From the IMG/VR virus record IMGVR_UViG_3300042673_002246: a stretch of DNA of 64,000 nt. One strand, given 5' to 3'. Shown piece after piece: positions 1,208-63,204 of the stretch. Numbering within the stretch: the stretch's first letter is position 1; each line of letters begins with the position of its first letter. The DNA comes from a virus. Made by a program: the position numbers and the translations under genes. Below the pieces are notes generated by a model that saw nothing but the letters and a program-made list of their open reading frames with translations, was not told the DNA's origin and did no database searches.

Positions 1208-4200
1208 ATGGCCGACGAGACAGTCAATATAAAAATAAAGATTGATGCGAAGACTCGTGAACTTCGCAAGGTCATGGCTGAGCTTGGCGCGCTCAAGAAG
1301 ATGGAGCGCCGTTTTGCTAGCGGTAGAACCATTGAAAACTACGCCCAATCCACCACCCGAAGTATTTCAGGTATGGCGTCAAAGTGGAAACGCAGTTTCG
1401 ATGAAATAGATGCTGCTACCAAGATGACTGGAAAGTTTCTTGGTGGCTTCTTGAAGCTCGCCATTAAGAGCGTAATTATAGAAATGGCGCTACTTTCAGC
1501 AACAATGATTGGAGTTCACGCACTCTTCAAGGCTGGTCAATTCTTGGTCAAGGCGTACCAAGGAGCTATGCAGTTTTTAGCTGGTGGGGCTGCCGCAGCT
1601 GCGATGGCAATAGGAACAGTTGCTGCAGCAATACGTGAGCAGCAGGCAGCAATGTTTGCATATAGAGGAAAGGGAGCAAAAGAGTTCGGTTCATCCATGA
1701 ATCAAACGAGAATGGCAATGCGAAACCTTCAATCAGATGTTTCGCTTGCAGGACTTGGTGTCGATTCGCTGAACAAGGCATTTGGCGTTATGTCTAAGAC
1801 CATGAATATGGCGCAGATAAATGCGAGCAATAAAACAATCCGAGCTTTGATGGATTTTGGTTCAGCAGGACAGGACCCAGCAAAAGCTGTTGAACAAGTT
1901 GCCGCAGTAGTCGCTGCTCTCTCTGACCAGAAAAAGGGAATCGGCGAGGTAATGGCCGAAGCAAAAAAACTCGGTCCAGAAATGCAAAAAGCACTGAAAG
2001 ATGCGAATATTAAAACGAAAGACCAGTTTAAAGAGCTTTTATTTTCTGGAAAGCTTGCTGAAAAAGGAGGTGTTGCTGGACAGTTTGAAGCAGTAAACAA
2101 CACACTCATCGGACAACTTAAAGCATATTTCGGAGTAATCCGTAGCGAATTTGCAGACTTCGGCGACCAGTTCCTTGAGCCAACCAAAAAAGCATTTGAA
2201 GAAGTATTTGGGATTATACGAAGAGACCTTGCTCGAGCAAGCGCAGCAATTGCCGGAGGTCCTGGATTCGATTCATTTACCGGTGGTTTTGTAACGGCAA
2301 TAGACAAGCTGTCCAACTGGATGGTCACGATGTTGCGGGAGTATTTACCAAAAGCACAAGGAATGTTTGAAAGAATGGGCAATTGGTTTTCTAACTTCCG
2401 CCGTGGTTGGAACTTGCTTCTCGATAAGCTACGACCTCTCATAGATGGCGCTAGAGTTTTGTACAAAGCGTGGGACCCAATCTGGGAAGCCATTAAGCGT
2501 GGCGCAGACAACCTTACTCTTTTCAGAGAATTGCTTATCAAGAATGAAGACAGTGTTGCCGAATTTGGGCAGCGCATAGGCGACTTGATTGACAGCTTGG
2601 CTAAATATTTCATGAACATGAAAAAAATGTTTGCTGACATGGCTCCTTTTATAAACGACCTTCTCGCCGGAGTAAAAATGATGTTCGACCTTTTGTCGAA
2701 AATGCAAACTCTCGGTGCTGGAAATGGTCTTGCGTCCGCCCTTGCGCCTCTATTTGGTTTTGCTATAGCGGCACGAGGAATGAAGAGCGTTAAGGGCATG
2801 ATGATGCCTGGCGTCGGCGCAATGAGTACCCAGCAAATGAACGTAACAGCAGGAACAGTAAATGTTGGAAGTGCTGCACTTACAGGACCAACTGGCCCTT
2901 CGGAAATGTCAAGACTCGCCAGCGGAGGAAGGGCTGCAGCTGTCAGTGGTTCGCCGGAAGCAAAAAAGGGTCTCGCCTCAGGACTGGCTACTGCTGGTAT
3001 GGCATCGAAAGCTGGAGGTTCACCGAAAGAATTTCCAGGAGCTGGCTCCATTACTCCATCCACCGGATTCTTTCAGGCCCTTGGCATAGGGTATCGAGAG
3101 CCAACCAATAACGGGATGGCAGCAGCAACAGCCCGAAGGATTGAGGGATACGCACGGCGTCGCGATGCTGCGCTCGGGTTTACAACTGGCCCTGGCATTG
3201 GTTCGCGAATTGGTGCATCAATCATGGCACGCACTAGGGACTATGCATCAGCAGCAGCAATGACCCCGGCAGAAAGGGGTGGTCTCAGCGCATCAGAATA
3301 TGCCGCTGGCGGAGTTGGTGGTGGCGCTACATACGGAGAAGCAATGCGCAACTCAATGACGAGGGCCGGAGCGCATGTTCGTTATGGGGCACTTGCAGGA
3401 GCCGATAGGGCTCAACTATTTGCGCGAAGAGTTGGTACTGCTGCTTCACGCGGCATGGACTACATGAGACAGGCTGCATATGACCCAAATCTAAAAAATG
3501 CTGACGGACAAACCGTGGGTGGATATGTAAACCTCCAGGAACAAAGAAATGCCATACGAGCAAACCGAGATTCAGCAATCGATGCACGCGGCGGAAAATT
3601 TCTCGCAAGGCAAGCAGAAAATATACGTGCCATGCGACAGAATTTACGCTTAGAAAGAAACATGACAAAATTCGGTGCAGCGCAGCAGAAATTCGGTAAG
3701 AGCTTCGGTGGTCGAATGGGTACTGCGATGGGGCTTGGAATGGCCAGCCAGTATGCGCCAGAAGAAATGCGTGGAGCAATGGCGCTCGGCGCAACCGTAT
3801 CGCAGCTTGACCCGCGACTTGGTATCGCGGTAGCTGGTATAGGTGGCGCCATGACTGCTCGTGGCGGACTCAAAGGCGGCCTTGCTGGAGCAGCTGGCGG
3901 AGCAGCGCTCGGCGCGCAGTTCGGAGGAGCATACGGAGCACTGGCTGGTGCGGTAATCGGAGGAGTATTTGGCGTAATCAAAGGCAGCATAAATAAAGGT
4001 GCTTATGAAATGAAGCAAGCCAGAGAAGTAGCTCGTGAAAGTATCAGGCAAATATTTTCCGGCATTGCAACTGCTGCTGGAACACAATTTGAAAGAAATA
4101 AAAGAACATACGAAGCTGGCGGCATGTTAAGCGGTGGCGGTGCGTTCGGCGATGTCGCCAAAGATTTTGTTTCCAGGAGGATGCGTGCAGCCACGGGAAT

Positions 4201-57371: not shown

Positions 57372-58585
57372 CCACAAAGAAAAAGCCAACATCAAAACTG
57401 GGTGAAAAATTAAAAGCCGTCAAGGTGGCCCAGCAAAAAGAAGATGCTAGCGCCAAGGCTCTCGGTGATATCGCAGCGATGCTCAAGGCCAAAAACATCG
57501 ACCCGTCCGAAATTGGGACTATTAACAAAGTGTCGTTGTATCAGACGGTAACAAAGAACGAATTGGGCGAGACGGAAGTCCATAATTTGCAAGCAATTCA
57601 GTTCAGCCCCACTTGGGACCAGGGGCCACAGTGGCCACTAATTGAACAAGGCCCCAAGATACAACTACAAAAGTCAACGACAAAAGTCACCCGTCCGAAA
57701 GGCTGGGAAGAGGCTGTCATCGTACCTGATATACAAATCGGCTTTTACCGTAAATCATTGGATTCTATGGACCTGGAACCAATCCACGACGAGCAGGCAA
57801 TAGCAGTAGCCTTGAAACTGATTGAAGACATCCAGCCAAATCAAGTGGTGATGGTCGGAGACAACTTAGACTTTGCAGAATTCGGCAAATTTTTGACTGC
57901 TGCTCCGTTTAAGCAACTAGTTCAGGCAGCTATCGACAGGGCAACAATGCTTTGTGCCCAAATTAGGTCAGCTGCACCAAATGCAAAAATCTCGTGGATT
58001 GCCGGCAACCACGAAGCCAGAATGGCGAGATATGTCCAAACCAACGCCGAAGCCGCCTTCGGAATCACTAGAGGCAAACTCAATGACGAATTGAGGGATA
58101 ACTGGCCAGCCATGTCGGTTCCATACCTTTGTCGAATGGACGAGTTCGGGGTTGACTATATTCCTGGATACCCAGAGTCCTATGTCAGCCTGAATGAAAA
58201 CCTGATGGTTATCCACGGACACAAGGTTACGTCCAATGGTTCAACGACCAGTAAGTACCTAAATGACGCCCATGTGTCGGTGATATACGGACATATCCAC
58301 AGGACAGAGTATGCCTTCCGCACTCGTCTGTCCAAGAATGGTCCAAGAACCATCATGGCGGCAAGTCCTGGCTGTCTCTGCAGGATAGACGGCGCAGTTC
58401 CTTCCACGAAATCTGGCGCAGATGAATTCGGACGTCCTATGCTCATGGGAGCAGAGAACTGGCAACAGGGAATGGCAGTAGTCCAGTACCAGCCGCCAGG
58501 GGTAGGCAACGAATGGTTCAACTACGAGCCAATGTGGATTTATAACGGACGAGGATTCTTCCGAGGCAAGGAGTACAGCGCATGA
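57368..58585 (+). CDS. Calcineurin-like metallophosphoesterase
   Basis: PDIQ, GDNLD, GNHE, HGH, GHIH. Confidence 0.85.
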   Translation: MTTKKKPTSKLGEKLKAVKVAQQKEDASAKALGDIAAMLKAKNIDPSEIGTINKVSLYQTVTKNELGETEVHNLQAIQFSPTWDQGPQWPLIEQGPKIQLQKSTTKVTRPKGWEEAVIVPDIQIGFYRKSLDSMDLEPIHDEQAIAVALKLIEDIQPNQVVMVGDNLDFAEFGKFLTAAPFKQLVQAAIDRATMLCAQIRSAAPNAKISWIAGNHEARMARYVQTNAEAAFGITRGKLNDELRDNWPAMSVPYLCRMDEFGVDYIPGYPESYVSLNENLMVIHGHKVTSNGSTTSKYLNDAHVSVIYGHIHRTEYAFRTRLSKNGPRTIMAASPGCLCRIDGAVPSTKSGADEFGRPMLMGAENWQQGMAVVQYQPPGVGNEWFNYEPMWIYNGRGFFRGKEYSA

Positions 58586-58827
58586 GTTCAAACGACCTTC
58601 CGCAAGAGTGGAGCGACTATTCAAAAGAAAACCTCCTCGAGGACATGGAACTTCTGAGGAAACAAGGTTTGATTGAAGTAGTAGGGATAAATAGTGACGG
58701 TGATTGGCTGTACGCCCTCACCGAATCAACAAGAAAGTTAATTGACGAAAACAAGTCAGACGACCCTTGGGCTGTGATATCACAACTACTCATCGATGAA
58801 CTACCGAATAGAGACGATATCAGTTGA
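58582..58827 (+). CDS. Hypothetical protein (winged-helix-like)
   Basis: LRKQGLIEV...YALTE; coupled on both sides. Confidence 0.55.
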   Translation: MSSNDLPQEWSDYSKENLLEDMELLRKQGLIEVVGINSDGDWLYALTESTRKLIDENKSDDPWAVISQLLIDELPNRDDIS

Positions 58828-59450
58828 CAACAATAATCGGCATTCAGGGAGATGGGTTCTGTATAGCGACCGCTGATTCGCGTATCGCTGAGACCGATGC
58901 CGAGTCAAATTTGATTTCGCAAATTGTCGGTCTAAAAGAGAACAACAGCAAATTAGGGATTAACGGTAAGTACATACTCGGCGCTGCCGGCGACCTGCGG
59001 GCAATAAATATCCTGCATCATGCATTCAGCCCACCAACTCCGCCCCCAAATCTCAAAGGCAAGAAGCTTGACCATTTTGTTACAGTTAAATTTATCCCAA
59101 GCTTGAGAGAATGCTTCGAAGCACAGGGATATGCCTCACCCGACAACGATTCAAAACAACATATCGCCGAACACGCTTCAACGATATTCATGGCTGTCAA
59201 TGGACAGATTTACATCATTGACGGTGACTACTCATGGATTTCAGACTCCAGTGGGATGTTTGCCATCGGAAGCGGCGCTCAGTACGCACTCGGAGCGATG
59301 TTCGCCATGCAACCGAAAGGCAAGATGACTGTTGGTGCAGCGCGAAAGCTTGCACTAAAAGCAATCGCCGCATCTGCCAAGTTCGACCCCTATACCGGTG
59401 CTCCGTACCATACGTTTTCACAGGGATTAGATAAAACCACTGACCGCTAG
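58824..59450 (+). CDS. Proteasome beta/HslV-like Ntn peptidase
   Basis: (M)TTIIG...ADSR...K...AIGSGAQYALG...D.YTG. Confidence 0.8.
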   Translation: MTTIIGIQGDGFCIATADSRIAETDAESNLISQIVGLKENNSKLGINGKYILGAAGDLRAINILHHAFSPPTPPPNLKGKKLDHFVTVKFIPSLRECFEAQGYASPDNDSKQHIAEHASTIFMAVNGQIYIIDGDYSWISDSSGMFAIGSGAQYALGAMFAMQPKGKMTVGAARKLALKAIAASAKFDPYTGAPYHTFSQGLDKTTDR

Positions 59451-59600
59451 TTACTTCTGGATAAATTTATCCTGACTCAGATGACTAGATAAGTCCATTT
59501 AGGACAAGAAAGAAAGCGCCGCTTTTTCCTTTCACGGATTACAAAGGCCGCGTAATCCCCTAGGACCGCATAACGCAATCCGTTATGCCTAGAGACTAGA

Positions 59601-59668
59601 TAGGGGTAAGGCAGAGCAATGGGGTGCCAGTAGGGGCAAGGCATAGTTGCAGGGGGGGTAAGGCATAG
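59601..59668 (+). repeat. Three direct repeats GGGGYAAGGCAKAG upstream of whiB
   Basis: taggggtaaggcagag (59601), taggggcaaggcatag (59631), gggggtaaggcatag (59654). Confidence 0.75.
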
Positions 59669-59771
59669 TACGAACCAAAACCAACATCCACTTGACCACC
59701 ACCTACCAGCAATTACCTAGTAGTAATTATCCAAAGAGATAAGAAATTCATCTTTTCTCTGAGGAGATTTT

Positions 59772-60122
59772 GTGACAAGCAAGAAAGAAATATCCAAACA
59801 AAAATTACCCAATAAAAATACCCAACCATTTTCAGAGATAGCTATACCTGCGAAAGATTGGTTTCAACTGGCAGCCTGTAGGGGAAAGACCGAACTAATG
59901 TTTCCCAAACAACATAAGGATATTACTTACATTGCACAGGCAAGAACCATCTGTAGGGCGTGCCCGGTTCGAGACAAGTGTTTAGAGTACGCACTTGAGT
60001 TTCCACCTGCTGATATGCACGGTGTTTGGGCAGGACTAACGAGCAGACAGCTTGCAGCAGAACAGAGAAGAAGAAAGATAAAGCCAACACGGCCAACGCT
60101 TGCACAGATGTGGGGAAATTAA
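59772..60122 (+). CDS. whiB: WhiB-family Fe-S transcription factor
   Basis: AAC...ICRACPVRDKC...HGVWAG plus basic tail; GAGGAG RBS. Confidence 0.92.
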   Translation: MTSKKEISKQKLPNKNTQPFSEIAIPAKDWFQLAACRGKTELMFPKQHKDITYIAQARTICRACPVRDKCLEYALEFPPADMHGVWAGLTSRQLAAEQRRRKIKPTRPTLAQMWGN

Positions 60123-60124
60123 AT

Positions 60125-60230
60125 GTCCACCCGGGCACCTCACTTGAGGAGGGGTCATGCACCCGACGCAAGGAGTCGTCGGTAGACGATGGCATAACCA
60201 CCAAGCGAGTTAATTCCGGCCCGAGTGGAC
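60125..60230 (-). ncRNA. Candidate structured small RNA (about 106 nt)
   Basis: 12-bp closing stem and three internal hairpins; TGCTAGGTT element 6 nt upstream. Confidence 0.5.
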
Positions 60231-60341
60231 GAGAGTAACCTAGCACAGCAGATGGCCGGCATCTAATAAAAGGCGAAAAAAGACCAAAAATCCTGCGCCG
60301 GCGGTCCTAAAAATTTTTTTTCGAAATTTTGTAATTACAAA

Positions 60342-60686
60342 TTACATAATGCGCAAGTTGCAAGTCTCACAAAATTGCCACTCATTTAATTGGGTAATTT
60401 TTTGCAGGCAATCTTTTTTGCCGCACGGCTTTAGTAATTGTTCCCCGCGCACGTACGCCAACACTTGCTCTTCCACTGTTGGTATTGAGAATTGCGCAGA
60501 GCCAGGAGCAGGGAATCCCTTTTGGTTGCGTACGAATTCATAGAGTGCATAGATGCACAATTGATTTACAGATATTCCCTGTTTAGTTGCGTACTCAACT
60601 ATCTCGTTTTTCACCCGGCCTTTTAGTCGGATGTTCAGCGTTACATAGCTGTCGAGATGTTTAGTCTTTTTGCTTTTAGCGCCCAT
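60342..60686 (-). CDS. Ribbon-helix-helix plus Zn-ribbon protein
   Basis: VTLNIRL...GISVNQLC; C-terminal C..C / CxxC. Confidence 0.7.
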   Translation of the reverse strand: MGAKSKKTKHLDSYVTLNIRLKGRVKNEIVEYATKQGISVNQLCIYALYEFVRNQKGFPAPGSAQFSIPTVEEQVLAYVRGEQLLKPCGKKDCLQKITQLNEWQFCETCNLRIM

Positions 60687-60843
60687 CTCGCTCGACCAAC
60701 GACTCTATGTACGCAGTCAAGCTCAAGTCGACGGCGCCGGCCTGATGCATGAGTTTTTCTTTAAATTCTTTTGTGACGCGCAATGTCAGCGTCACTACTG
60801 GCTTCGTTGGTATAAGAGCTGGTCTGCCTGGGTTTCTCTTCAC
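60676..60843 (-). CDS. Ribbon-helix-helix protein, 55 aa (not in ORF track)
   Basis: Manually translated: MKRNPGRPALIPTKPVVTLTLRVTKEFKEKLMHQAGAVDLSLTAYIESLVERDGR. Confidence 0.75.
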   Translation of the reverse strand: MKRNPGRPALIPTKPVVTLTLRVTKEFKEKLMHQAGAVDLSLTAYIESLVERDGR

Positions 60844-60990
60844 AAACCAGAAGCTAGCCCAGGACGACAGACCTCATTGCAACTACTAGCGAGACAACAA
60901 TAAATATCTTCAGCAGGAAAGCAATCCTGGAATACATTACAGCATAAATAAAAAGACTAGAAAAAAATAGGTAAATTATTGTTGGGGTAT

Positions 60991-61473
60991 TCATTTACTA
61001 CTATCCAATTCAGGAACTGAGTACCGGTCCATATCTAGTTCATTGACGATTCGTTCATATGTACGACAGAATGCTTCTCTGTCTGAATTGGTGTGCATTC
61101 CCCAGGCAGCGTCTCCCAGTGCCCTTACTGTAGAGCGGAGGGCGTCTGACATCTCAACTGGGTTACCTACACCAGAATTGACGTTAGAAATTACGGTAAG
61201 GAATTTACCCCAAGCAACAAGGGGGTCATCGAATGAGGTCATTTTTGTACGCCTATTTATTGTGGCACGGCGTATCTCGCCAGGCCTGGGCATGAACTGG
61301 GCACTGACCGCAATCTGGAGGAAAGCCTTCTTTGTCTCGTCGTACTCCAGGTCATGGAGTAAATCGTGCCAGGACGAATACAGGGTCATTAGTCTGTCTT
61401 CTGCCGAGGGGAGTGTTTGGTTGTAGGTGGCATAGGCCTGCTCTACCAATTGAACTAATTCGGTTTTAGTCAC
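60991..61473 (-). CDS. Replicative helicase loader/inhibitor-like protein (SPP1 G39P-like)
   Basis: WHDLLHDLEY...FMPRPGEIRR; follows a replication-initiator-like gene. Confidence 0.6.
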   Translation of the reverse strand: MTKTELVQLVEQAYATYNQTLPSAEDRLMTLYSSWHDLLHDLEYDETKKAFLQIAVSAQFMPRPGEIRRATINRRTKMTSFDDPLVAWGKFLTVISNVNSGVGNPVEMSDALRSTVRALGDAAWGMHTNSDREAFCRTYERIVNELDMDRYSVPELDSSK

Positions 61474-61565
61474 TCGTCATCCTCTTCTTCATTGCAGCGT
61501 AGGGGTCGGGTAATCCTATCCATCTCACAGTCGCATGGGGGTTTGCTCTTGCCGGCAATAATCAT
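61470..61565 (-). CDS. 31-aa microprotein
   Basis: MIIAGKSKPPCDCEMDRITRPLRCNEEEDDE; ATGA overlap upstream and GTGA overlap downstream. Confidence 0.55.
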   Translation of the reverse strand: MIIAGKSKPPCDCEMDRITRPLRCNEEEDDE

Positions 61566-61960
61566 TTATCCCCACTTATCCATTTATCTCGAGCTGTGTT
61601 GCCTGTCTTTTCTTCCAGCTTCCTTAGGAACATCTCGACGTGCTGTGCATCAATGAAGATGTTATGGATGTCGTTGTACTTCTTCCCGTTGGGGTTCTTG
61701 CCCATATGCCAATCAGAGACAAGGCATCCGTCTATAGCGTCCTTGCAGGACTTGATTCCGTAGTTCTTGATAGCCCATCCAATTCTTGCCGCGCGTTTGG
61801 CGTCCAGGACTGCAGCTCTTTTGGAATGGCGTTCTTTCCAATAGTCGAAAACTATTTTCTTTGCATCTTCAGAAATTGTTTCCGCCGCCGTGCGTTGGTC
61901 TTTGGTGTGCTGATTCGGACCGCGCTTCTTCTTCTCTCTGGGGAAGAGCTCATCAACCAT
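61562..61960 (-). CDS. Phage replication initiator C-terminal-domain-like protein
   Basis: VFDYWKE...AIDGC...WHMGKN..GKKYNDI..IF. Confidence 0.55.
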   Translation of the reverse strand: MVDELFPREKKKRGPNQHTKDQRTAAETISEDAKKIVFDYWKERHSKRAAVLDAKRAARIGWAIKNYGIKSCKDAIDGCLVSDWHMGKNPNGKKYNDIHNIFIDAQHVEMFLRKLEEKTGNTARDKWISGDK

Positions 61961-61966
61961 AGACAC

Positions 61967-61995
61967 ATCCTATCGTTGCTTTCCGCCACCGTCAA
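61967..61995 (-). promoter_or_regulatory. Sigma70/SigA-type promoter, leaderless transcript
   Basis: TTGACG-N17-TAGGAT, then 6 nt, then ATG 61960. Confidence 0.65.
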
Positions 61996-62149
61996 TACTT
62001 ATCGACACAGAAATGGTACAAACAGGAAAAAAAATTTTGCTTAATTTTCAATTGAGTAAAACTAAATTTCGTAAATGAAAACACTCTAAAGATTGGATTA
62101 ATCCAAAACTATTCTTACTTTCAACCAAGGAATAAATCCTTGAATGAAT

Positions 62150-62175
62150 AAAGAAGAACCCCTCCTTTGGAGGGG
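62150..62175 (-). terminator. Rho-independent terminator
   Basis: 7-bp GC-rich stem followed by a U-rich tract on the minus strand. Confidence 0.6.
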
Positions 62176-62314
62176 GTGTGGGGGAACCTTTGAAATTTTG
62201 CCAACTTTCGTGGGGGCGTGGCCGGCTAAGCCTTTTGTTTCCAAAAGGTTTTCAGGGCATGTAGGTTTTCCCACGTAATGTGTCGACACGTTGGACCGAC
62301 CTATTGGTCGATGG
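62150..62314 (-). ncRNA. Candidate small RNA (about 165 nt) with promoter and intrinsic terminator
   Basis: Promoter at 62321-62349; hairpins including CCTTTTG-GAAA-CAAAAGG; terminator CCCCTCC-AAA-GGAGGGG-TTCTTCTTT. Confidence 0.55.
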
Positions 62315-62320
62315 CGGTTC

Positions 62321-62349
62321 AAGCTAGCAGAGTCTTCCACCACCGTCAA
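62321..62349 (-). promoter_or_regulatory. Sigma70/SigA-type promoter with extended -10
   Basis: TTGACG-N17-TAGCTT preceded by TG; shares TTGACGGTGGYGGAA with the promoter at 61967-61995. Confidence 0.65.
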
Positions 62350-62443
62350 CCACCCAGGGCAAATTCTTTTCAGAATCTTTTCAGTTTTTTTATTTCTTGA
62401 AATATTTACATGGAGTCTTTAAAAATCGTGCTATGTTAGCGGG

Positions 62444-62546
62444 GCTCCTTCCGGAGTTACCCCCTTTCACCGGAATGGAGTTAACCCCAGGGTTGAGTCT
62501 TTCTGTTTTCTGGTAGGTGGTGACGGAAGTTGACTCCCCTGGGGTT
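62444..62546 (+). ncRNA. Candidate two-hairpin small RNA (about 103 nt)
   Basis: TGCTATGTT (62429-62437) plus 6 nt; two long stems whose G-U pairs favour the + strand. Confidence 0.5.
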
Positions 62547-62572
62547 TCCTTTAACCCGGAGAGCTCGAGCGG

Positions 62573-63022
62573 CTATTCGTCAGATTCTGGCTTTTTCCAC
62601 ATCCCTGAGTTAGGTCCGCCTAACTCTCTGTCCTGGAATGACCAACCAATCAATCCCCATGGGCCTGGCTTCTTTTTGCGTTTGGCCATCTTTTCTTCGA
62701 GAATGTGGGTAATGTCGATATCGAAGTCTGTCCTTCGATTATTGGTCGGGTGGTTCCATCGAGACTTCATCTGTTCGTACGCAATCTTTTGGGAAAGCTC
62801 ATGCAGCTCCATGCCATCGGGCGTCTTATTTCTTTCTTTTTCTAGCCTCCACGAGTCGAGCTCAGTGATGAGAGTTTTGGCCGCCTGGTCCAGCATCGCG
62901 TTCATTTTTTCCTCAGCTTCGTAATAGCGCTTTATGTCCCTTCGTCGCCGAAGCGTGCGCGAATCAAAAAACCACAAAATTGCAAAAACCAGATGCAGGC
63001 CCAGAGATACGTAAACGTTCAT
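62573..63022 (-). CDS. Hypothetical membrane-anchored protein
   Basis: N-terminal hydrophobic helix followed by a coiled coil. Confidence 0.6.
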   Translation of the reverse strand: MNVYVSLGLHLVFAILWFFDSRTLRRRRDIKRYYEAEEKMNAMLDQAAKTLITELDSWRLEKERNKTPDGMELHELSQKIAYEQMKSRWNHPTNNRRTDFDIDITHILEEKMAKRKKKPGPWGLIGWSFQDRELGGPNSGMWKKPESDE

Positions 63023-63204
63023 GAATTTTCCTCATTTTCTTCTTTTTCTTCAGCCGGCAGCCGGCCGCCAGATTCTTTTAAAATCTTATCTTTTTTGATT
63101 TCGCCCTCGAGCCACAACGCGTCCGCCTCGAGCTCAGCTTTCATTTCGATGATGTCTTCGCATTCGATGTCAGACATTCCAGAAAAGTTAAATTTTCCCA
63201 TCAT
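63019..63204 (-). CDS. Hypothetical protein
   Basis: 61-aa acidic ORF, overlaps both neighbours. Confidence 0.5.
   Translation of the reverse strand: MMGKFNFSGMSDIECEDIIEMKAELEADALWLEGEIKKDKILKESGGRLPAEEKEENEENS

Follow-up and report, generated by a model that had tools for sequence, protein, structure and literature searches.

A separate RNA gene probably lies on the minus strand at 60125-60230 of the window, that is, of the whole 64,000-nucleotide stretch of DNA that was analysed, beside whiB in the ~154-kb genome of a large freshwater phage. The preliminary description of this locus had proposed a regulatory sRNA built around a four-way junction. We were able to retain the first half of that proposal, as a separately promoted and strand-specific structured RNA gene with a conserved -10 element, wobble-only changes among its copies and a conservation above that of whiB, but not the four-way architecture. 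The element, which we call the type A RNA, makes a compact and well-delimited candidate, consisting of a promoter, a 106-nt rod and two invariant seeds. To our knowledge, phage regulatory RNAs are poorly charted beyond the enterobacterial model phages, and we know of next to nothing for phages of uncultured freshwater bacteria.

The closest IMG/VR record is a 153.9-kb contig rated 100% complete, which is 99% identical to the window across the locus. The element lies within the 219-bp gap separating the convergent whiB and RHH genes. The neighbouring gene, taken earlier to be whiB, was confirmed as such by its Pfam match, and the stem does end beside it as described, 2 nt (a 3-nt offset) from the stop codon at 60120-60122. 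Beyond the RHH gene, the minus strand continues with replication-type genes having helicase-loader and initiator-like PHROG matches, because of which the region appears to be early or regulatory. The features of the locus, and of the corresponding position in relatives, are collected in Table 1.

Table 1. Features of the type A locus in the window and contents of the same position in relatives (positions in relatives are preceded by the locus name)
Feature	Position	Strand	Details
Structured RNA type A, unbranched rod	60125..60230	-	106 nt; 12+9+8+6 bp
Closing stem, 5' strand	60219..60230	-	12 bp; pairs with 60125-60136; pair probabilities 0.96-1.0
Internal loop 1	60210..60218	-	9 nt, CGGAAUUAA; variants CAGGAUUAA, CGGGAUUAA; GU 60137-60138 opposite
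Helix 2	60139..60209	-	9 bp (60201-60209 with 60139-60147), around the inner rod; pair probabilities in text
Helix 3	60153..60199	-	8 bp (60192-60199 with 60153-60160); encloses internal loop 2 (60183-60191, variable) and apical hairpin
Apical hairpin CCGACG-ACUCCUUG-CGUCGG	60163..60182	-	loop 60169-60176 invariant
C-rich internal motif CCUCCUC	60146..60152	-	invariant in all copies; CCUCC bulge 60148-60152 plus two weak pairs
Extended -10 promoter element	60237..60247	-	TGTGCTAGGTT (TGn + TAGGTT); TGTGCTA[A/G]G[T/G]T across 9/9 distinct copies
Spacer ACTCTC	60231..60236	-	6 nt, pyrimidine-rich; from -10 element to predicted start G60230
Tail 3' of stem	60105..60124	-	AUUUAAUUUCCCC...; antisense to final whiB codons and stop; partly U-rich
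whiB-like gene	59772..60122	+	116 aa; convergent with RNA gene; Pfam PF02467, E 2.5e-15
RHH (Arc/HicB-like) + C-terminal Cys4 protein gene	60342..60686	-	114 aa; upstream on the RNA's strand
A-tract / GC core (CGCCGGCG palindrome) / T-tract element	60275..60322	.	after RHH gene; left border of variable slot
Type B RNA	16/80 whiB-relative loci, e.g. L013:~3400-3470, L027, L058, L060	minus relative to whiB	64-69 nt; core CACACAAAAAGG...GCUAACGG
Type C RNA, branched	L009/L010 downstream of whiB; L134:~3480-3570		85-90 nt; contains GCUCCUGC
Type D hairpin + tRNA (anticodon UGU)	L021, L042	-	T-loop-like CAUUGUUCGAACC; covarying stem; promoter before hairpin
tRNA alone	L050 (L050:3544-3615), L051, L053	minus (L050)	same slot
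Slot tRNA, anticodon loop CUUGUAA (UGU)	L021:3411-3482, L042:3469-3540, L050:3544-3615	-	same slot as type A
No recognised cassette within 700 nt	e.g. L029, L035, L043		slot content

On the minus strand the element has a predicted folding energy of -52.0 kcal/mol over 106 nt and of -53.5 kcal/mol over 116 nt, the latter with a z-score of -4.99, and none of 200 dinucleotide shuffles was equally stable; the plus strand reaches -44.9 kcal/mol, with a z-score of -3.1. The minimum-energy, centroid and RNAalifold structures concur on a single unbranched rod. From base to tip, this comprises the 12-bp closing stem, an internal loop of 9 nt facing GU, a 9-bp helix, a bulged U opposite CCUCC, an 8-bp helix, a second 9-nt/GU internal loop and the apical hairpin. 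The closing stem is the one first described, in which ACTCTC is followed by GTCCACTCGGGC (60230-60219) pairing with GCCCGGGTGGAC (60136-60125), and it does contain one strand-specific U-G pair, in whose place the plus strand would have a C-A mismatch. The rod helices have ensemble probabilities of 0.95-1.0, bar two terminal pairs; in helix 2, seven pairs reach 0.95-0.99, while the innermost two have 0.64 and 0.29.

The three hairpins that the junction was said to enclose fared differently. Only CCGACG-ACTCCTTG-CGTCGG is present, whereas GGTGG/CCATC and CCTC/GAGG have an ensemble probability of 0.0. The junction as originally drawn has an energy of -42.2 kcal/mol, and the best structure in which those helices are forced has -44.7 kcal/mol, which places the branched fold 7-10 kcal/mol above the rod. 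Natural variants leave the rod helices paired, and the variant in L007 disrupts one pair of the GGUGG/CCAUC junction hairpin. We therefore reject the four-way junction, on grounds of energy, of ensemble probabilities and of how the variants are distributed. As a separate observation, internal loop 1 (60210-60218) has 8-bp complementarity to the tail at 60105-60124 just 3' of the closing stem, and the loop 1 and tail variants of other lineages retain partial complementarity; an intramolecular pseudoknot formed by this pairing is sterically doubtful.

Relatives were collected by searches anchored on the WhiB and RHH proteins, from which 100 IMG/VR loci were obtained, and by DNA-pattern scans of 2.9 million viral contigs, a metagenome set and 185,579 species genomes, together with a covariance model (R1) built from the copies. 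Type A copies were found on seven IMG/VR contigs, on four metagenome contigs and on one 4.7-kb contig of a metagenome-assembled genome (MAG) labelled Pseudomonadota. The latter carries a phage-type whiB of 88% identity and looks like a misbinned phage fragment. These copies amount to nine distinct sequences with at least 91% identity, each lying 2-3 nt from the stop codon of whiB; the element is single-copy both in the window and in the complete relative G001. R1 identified no distant homologue or second copy in 58 whiB-relative sources or in G001, and no distant homologue on 24 non-family contigs matched by a loop-only pattern or on L135. A blastn search of the GenBank phage collection gave no match to the element.

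In the alignment of the nine distinct sequences all 324 stem cells form standard pairs, and sliding the 3' partners by 1-3 columns lowers pairing to 33-47%. Each of five one-sided changes (C-to-U, U-to-C and three A/G) leaves a pair intact on the minus strand by virtue of G-U wobble, and would give a mismatch if the plus strand were the one that folds. The C-to-U change lies in the closing stem, A/G changes in helix 2 alternate between U-A and U-G, and in helix 3 a U-to-C and an A-to-G change stay paired. In addition, the apical stem of L134 carries a compensatory double transversion from C-G to A-U. Of the pair-preserving changes named here, three fall in helices 2 and 3, which exist only in the rod. 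G-U pairs on the minus strand number six in most copies and four in that of the window, and all of them would be C-A mismatches on the plus strand. In a covariation shuffle control, 52 of 500 shuffles attained the observed score at this low diversity (at least 91% identity), which is not significant. The covariation is weak because the family is shallow, and we regard it as suggestive, not as decisive.

Selective constraint on the RNA is evident when it is compared with whiB. Between L004 and L137 the RNA has no difference in 106 positions and whiB has 41 in 351 (27 of the 117 third positions), giving a binomial P of ~2e-6, and several other lineage pairs give P values of 1e-3 to 1e-5. The window's copy has four private changes in the RNA, and its whiB is one base different from that of L004; hence the evolution or movement of the cassette is partly uncoupled from whiB. 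The strong conservation of the RNA could also reflect recent horizontal exchange of the cassette in place of selection. The open reading frames across the element were rejected as coding. Changes among the copies are mostly non-synonymous in a plus-strand 18-codon frame (60157-60213, SD GAGGAGG), which is probably no gene both for this reason and since its SD is the complement of CCUCCUC. A minus-strand frame of 35 aa loses its ATG in L008, and one of 107 aa was discarded along with the others, for non-synonymous changes or a lost start.

The promoter is conserved along with the RNA. The motif TGCTAGGTT is found at 60245-60237 on the minus strand, where it had been pointed out before, and the TG preceding it makes it an extended -10. 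Identity in the flank alignment starts exactly at TGTGCTA, 6 nt before the stem base, and the DNA upstream cannot be aligned among four lineages (the window group, L007, L134 and L137/L138). All copies thus have TGTGCTARGKT in front of unrelated upstream sequences, which points to a promoter belonging to the RNA. In L137/L138 there is a small promoter-proximal duplication of the TGTGCTA element, TGTGCTACTTGTGCTAAG. The motif TGCTANNTT is not enriched across the window (7 seen against 10 expected); its weight comes from positional conservation and not from counts. Transcription would start at or near G60230 off the extended -10 TGTGCTAGGTT, for which a conserved -35 is not needed.

Could the element be a miniature inverted-repeat mobile DNA, in which ~80 bp are flanked by terminal inverted repeats of 12 bp, or else a recombination site, and have no function as an RNA? 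Its inverted termini, its cassette-like presence and absence, a phylogeny discordant with that of whiB and the duplication in L137/L138 are all compatible with such an origin. Yet it occurs as a single copy per 154-kb genome, all copies across the viral contigs, the metagenome set and the 185,579 genomes are adjacent to whiB, and the internal helices are kept by wobble changes that suit one strand. We consider this explanation extremely unlikely. The multiple dispersed copies and the target-site duplications of a MITE-like element were not found among these sequences.

The tail following the stem may be the termination zone of the transcript. It changes from AUUUAAUUU to AUCUAUCCU in L007 and L008, its U-tract is poor and differs between lineages, and a terminator scanner reported no site on either strand at 60100-60240. 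An intrinsic terminator in the strict sense (a short GC-rich hairpin with a loop of 3-8 nt, followed by a U-run) was therefore rejected, there being no scanner site and no conservation of the tail. It is a broader proposal that the palindrome is only a terminator or 3'-end stabiliser for whiB and/or the RHH operon and that there is no separate RNA gene. The likeness to a bidirectional intrinsic terminator is real: the element sits between convergent genes, straight after the whiB stop, with a GC-rich closing stem and then a partly U-rich tail, and its plus strand folds well too (z -3.1). Terminators of Actinobacteria, moreover, often lack U-tracts. However, the closing stem encloses an 82-nt conserved insert, has a dedicated promoter and shows strand-asymmetric stability, and a 106-nt rod of four helices with invariant loops exceeds by far what a terminator needs. 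It is the minus strand that is favoured by the wobble pairs (six in most copies, four in the window's) and by every variant position. On that strand, the gene upstream is already followed by the A/T-tract element, 40 nt earlier, and the conserved -10 lies between that element and the rod. Finally, L029, L035 and L043 do without the rod, which indicates that whiB does not need it as a terminator. We therefore judge a role confined to termination or 3'-end stabilisation to be quite unlikely. Most relatives have the A/T-tract element (60275-60322 in the window) at the corresponding place. Its folding is weak (z -1.5 and +0.2), for which reason it was rejected as a strong terminator and is named terminator-like only.

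The position next to whiB is occupied by cassettes. In relatives whose WhiB is 70-82% identical it holds other contents (Table 1), so that at least four unrelated structured RNAs, as well as a tRNA, make use of this one intergenic slot beside a phage whiB regulator. We regard this reuse as the more interesting by-product of the analysis. The type B RNA has a closing stem that covaries between lineages, a TAnnnT promoter of its own and a pyrimidine-rich tail, and in these relatives a tiny hydrophobic plus-strand ORF (~19 aa) lies between the RNA and whiB. The closing stem of type C also covaries (GCCGGCAG against GCCAGCAG, with matching partners), and L134 carries type C in tandem with type A, immediately upstream of the type A promoter. 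Rfam contained no match to type B, C or D.

These cassettes share one arrangement of their promoters. In 10 of the 11 cassettes examined, the distance from the start of TAnnnT to the first base of the closing stem is 12-13 nt; in the exception, L009, the hexamer lies 10 nt before the seed used and ~11 nt before the first paired base. Each family has a pyrimidine-rich spacer after the hexamer, and the hexamer sequences differ. The same -10 geometry is thus found in four unrelated RNA cassette families of the slot, and this is the strongest argument that they are independent transcription units starting from the stem base. Provided that these RNAs are expressed, the slot would be an obvious place to look for new RNA families and would offer a handle on how these phages tune host translation or their own; otherwise, the element would be no more than an elaborate hairpin between convergent genes.

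The adjacency of all nine distinct copies to the whiB stop codon (2-3 nt) is also what one would see if the RNA were a cis-antisense or convergent-transcription regulator, in which duplex formation (RNase III) or polymerase collision tunes WhiB and the rod insulates the two units. There is no plus-strand terminator from the whiB stop to the element, the sole terminator-like one being beyond it at 60275-60322; the whiB 3' UTR would therefore traverse the element and form a perfect complement of the sRNA. Complementarity also exists between loop 1 and the tail, which runs antisense to the final codons of whiB. On the other hand, relatives with an orthologous whiB have unrelated RNAs, a tRNA or no cassette in this slot, and because of this variation it appears to be a permissive insertion site and not a device specific to whiB. 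Moreover, the type B relatives place their small plus-strand ORF between RNA and whiB, and a perfect antisense partner needs no strict conservation of its loops. Control of whiB in cis is, in our opinion, unlikely.

We prefer the reading in which type A is a stand-alone phage sRNA of ~106-110 nt with its own promoter, whose invariant motifs pair with purine-rich ribosome-binding sites; it is held tentatively, at not quite an even chance. Two parts of the RNA, the apical loop ACUCCUUG (60176-60169) and CCUCCUC (60152-60146), are identical in the nine distinct copies and predicted to be single-stranded, as conserved seeds would be. The exposed CUCCU remarked on earlier was found twice, with predicted unpaired probabilities of 0.88 in the apical loop and 0.79 in CCUCCUC; two or more CUCCU occur in 1.1% of shuffles, a statistic that was chosen post hoc. 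The anti-Shine-Dalgarno core at the 3' end of 16S rRNA is CCUCCUU, and both ACUCCUUG and CCUCCUC match it in its core.

For the stand-alone sRNA it would not be unreasonable to hypothesise the following course of events. The transcript would fold into the very stable unbranched rod, its 5' and 3' ends locked in the closing stem, which probably also halts or stabilises it beside the whiB stop codon. Its unpaired pyrimidine motifs would then act in trans on mRNAs of the host or the phage, pairing with their purine-rich ribosome-binding sites and so blocking the initiation of translation, with no chaperone needed. Such a base-pairing mechanism directed at Shine-Dalgarno sequences is plausible by analogy. 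Conserved or extended complementarity to a target was not found in the 64-kb window, where matches of 9-10 nt are at chance level. The best candidate is the SD of ORF 58582 (GCAAGGAGU), which pairs with the entire apical loop over 9 nt, again at chance level, and the divergent carrier L138 lacks this site in the 3.2 kb upstream of its whiB. The SD of whiB itself (UGAGGAG) was rejected, having only a 7-nt match, as were the G-rich repeats upstream of whiB, which match the apical loop over only 6 nt. A generic anti-SD seed would be unspecific, because the phage's own genes use GGAG-type SDs.

The RNA might instead act through a protein, as a decoy or scaffold that sequesters a host factor, a defence sensor or a phage protein. 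Type A is mostly duplex, with extremely conserved helices and locked ends, and its two internal loops are alike, each being closed by a G-C and a C-G pair and having a 5' strand of 9 nt that faces a 3' GU. No target was found, and relatives have tRNAs in the slot, a setting in which phages such as T4 carry small stable RNAs (species 1 and 2). The 9-nt strands of the internal loops are, however, the most variable positions of the RNA, which fits poorly with specific protein recognition there, and the invariant parts are pyrimidine motifs. In addition, we saw no gene for a potential partner whose presence follows that of the cassette, and the genes on either side are of DNA-binding types. We regard protein binding as rather unlikely to be the role of the RNA.

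The preferred reading, a base-pairing sRNA, can be extended to the slot as a whole, which would then be a dedicated, exchangeable small-RNA socket in a widespread group of large freshwater phages, with type A as a new kind of effector RNA, a double anti-SD mimic. Under this proposal recombination would exchange unrelated promoter-plus-RNA cassettes (A, B, C, D and tRNA) at the slot, and type A would sequester ribosome-binding sites, or a host factor recognising them, such that host translation is reprogrammed. The extension as a whole is very unlikely in our estimation.

In order to place the type A RNA among known families, the whole window was searched with Rfam 15 (6C, SRP, 6S, Y RNA, tRNA and riboswitches among its families) at gathering thresholds, which gave no match; at E values up to 10, the region 59900-60500 returned noise only (mir-67 with 15.9 bits against a GA of 53, U11 and astro_FSE). 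ARAGORN identified no tRNA gene and there was no match to RF00005, and a branched fold is, as given above, 7-10 kcal/mol worse than the rod. No paper on the type A RNA or on the whiB-adjacent slot was found in a literature search. Matching no known RNA family, it appears best filed as a narrow new phage-encoded structured small RNA.

Among described systems, 6C (RF01066; B11 in M. tuberculosis) is similar in being small and highly structured, with exposed C-rich loops for G-rich mRNA sites (PMC6486639). The 6C sRNA pairs with mRNAs through its C-rich loops independently of a chaperone (PMC6486639). The likely host phylum of the phage also fits. There is no sequence or covariance-model similarity, however, and 6C is not listed even at E values up to 10. 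Its build is also different, with two separate hairpins whose loops have at least six C, followed by a terminator, whereas type A is one nested rod with the motifs ACUCCUUG and CCUCCUC and no C6 loops. Type A is furthermore phage-encoded and confined to a handful of contigs.

Other parallels come from phages themselves. DicF, lambda OOP and P22 Sar are phage or prophage base-pairing sRNAs, which are shorter, less structured and linked to Hfq in enterobacteria. Like them, type A is a short non-coding unit with its own promoter in an early or regulatory region, near to and convergent with a regulator gene, and both cis antisense and trans action are possible; it differs in its locked-end rod and in having no defined target. 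The T4 species 1 and 2 RNAs and, near phage tRNAs, GOLLD and ROOL are small stable RNAs of phage tRNA regions. These resemble type A in that its slot bears a tRNA gene in relatives and in their structure with paired ends. Type A differs in that it is not tRNA-like and has its own promoter in place of processing from a tRNA precursor, while GOLLD and ROOL are several-fold larger and gave no match.

WhiB is a marker of Actinomycetota. A host call through WhiB itself was rejected, since its top matches are misbinned phage contigs and the cellular ones reach only 36-39% identity. The true cellular matches are from Actinomycetota, in addition to one short segment of 53% identity (34 residues) in a Microbacterium MAG. 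As far as these comparisons go, Actinomycetota is the likely host phylum.

Some further features were noticed around the locus. A perfect 12-bp palindrome, TTGTAATTACAA, lies at 60329-60340, immediately after the RHH stop codon; many relatives retain it in slightly varied form, and it resembles an operator. Of the 13 GCCGGC sites in the window, eight are grouped in a 5-kb regulatory region (58001-63065), and GCCGGC(GAT) is found again just upstream of the RNA promoters in the relatives L013, L027, L021, L042 and L081. Two other structured non-coding units lie further along the window, each with TGCTAnnTT 6-7 nt upstream. The first, at 62150-62314 on the minus strand, folds at -54.5 kcal/mol (z -3.96) and terminates in a clear intrinsic terminator (62175-62159), and the second, at 62444-62560 on the plus strand, folds at -52.1 kcal/mol (z -3.89).
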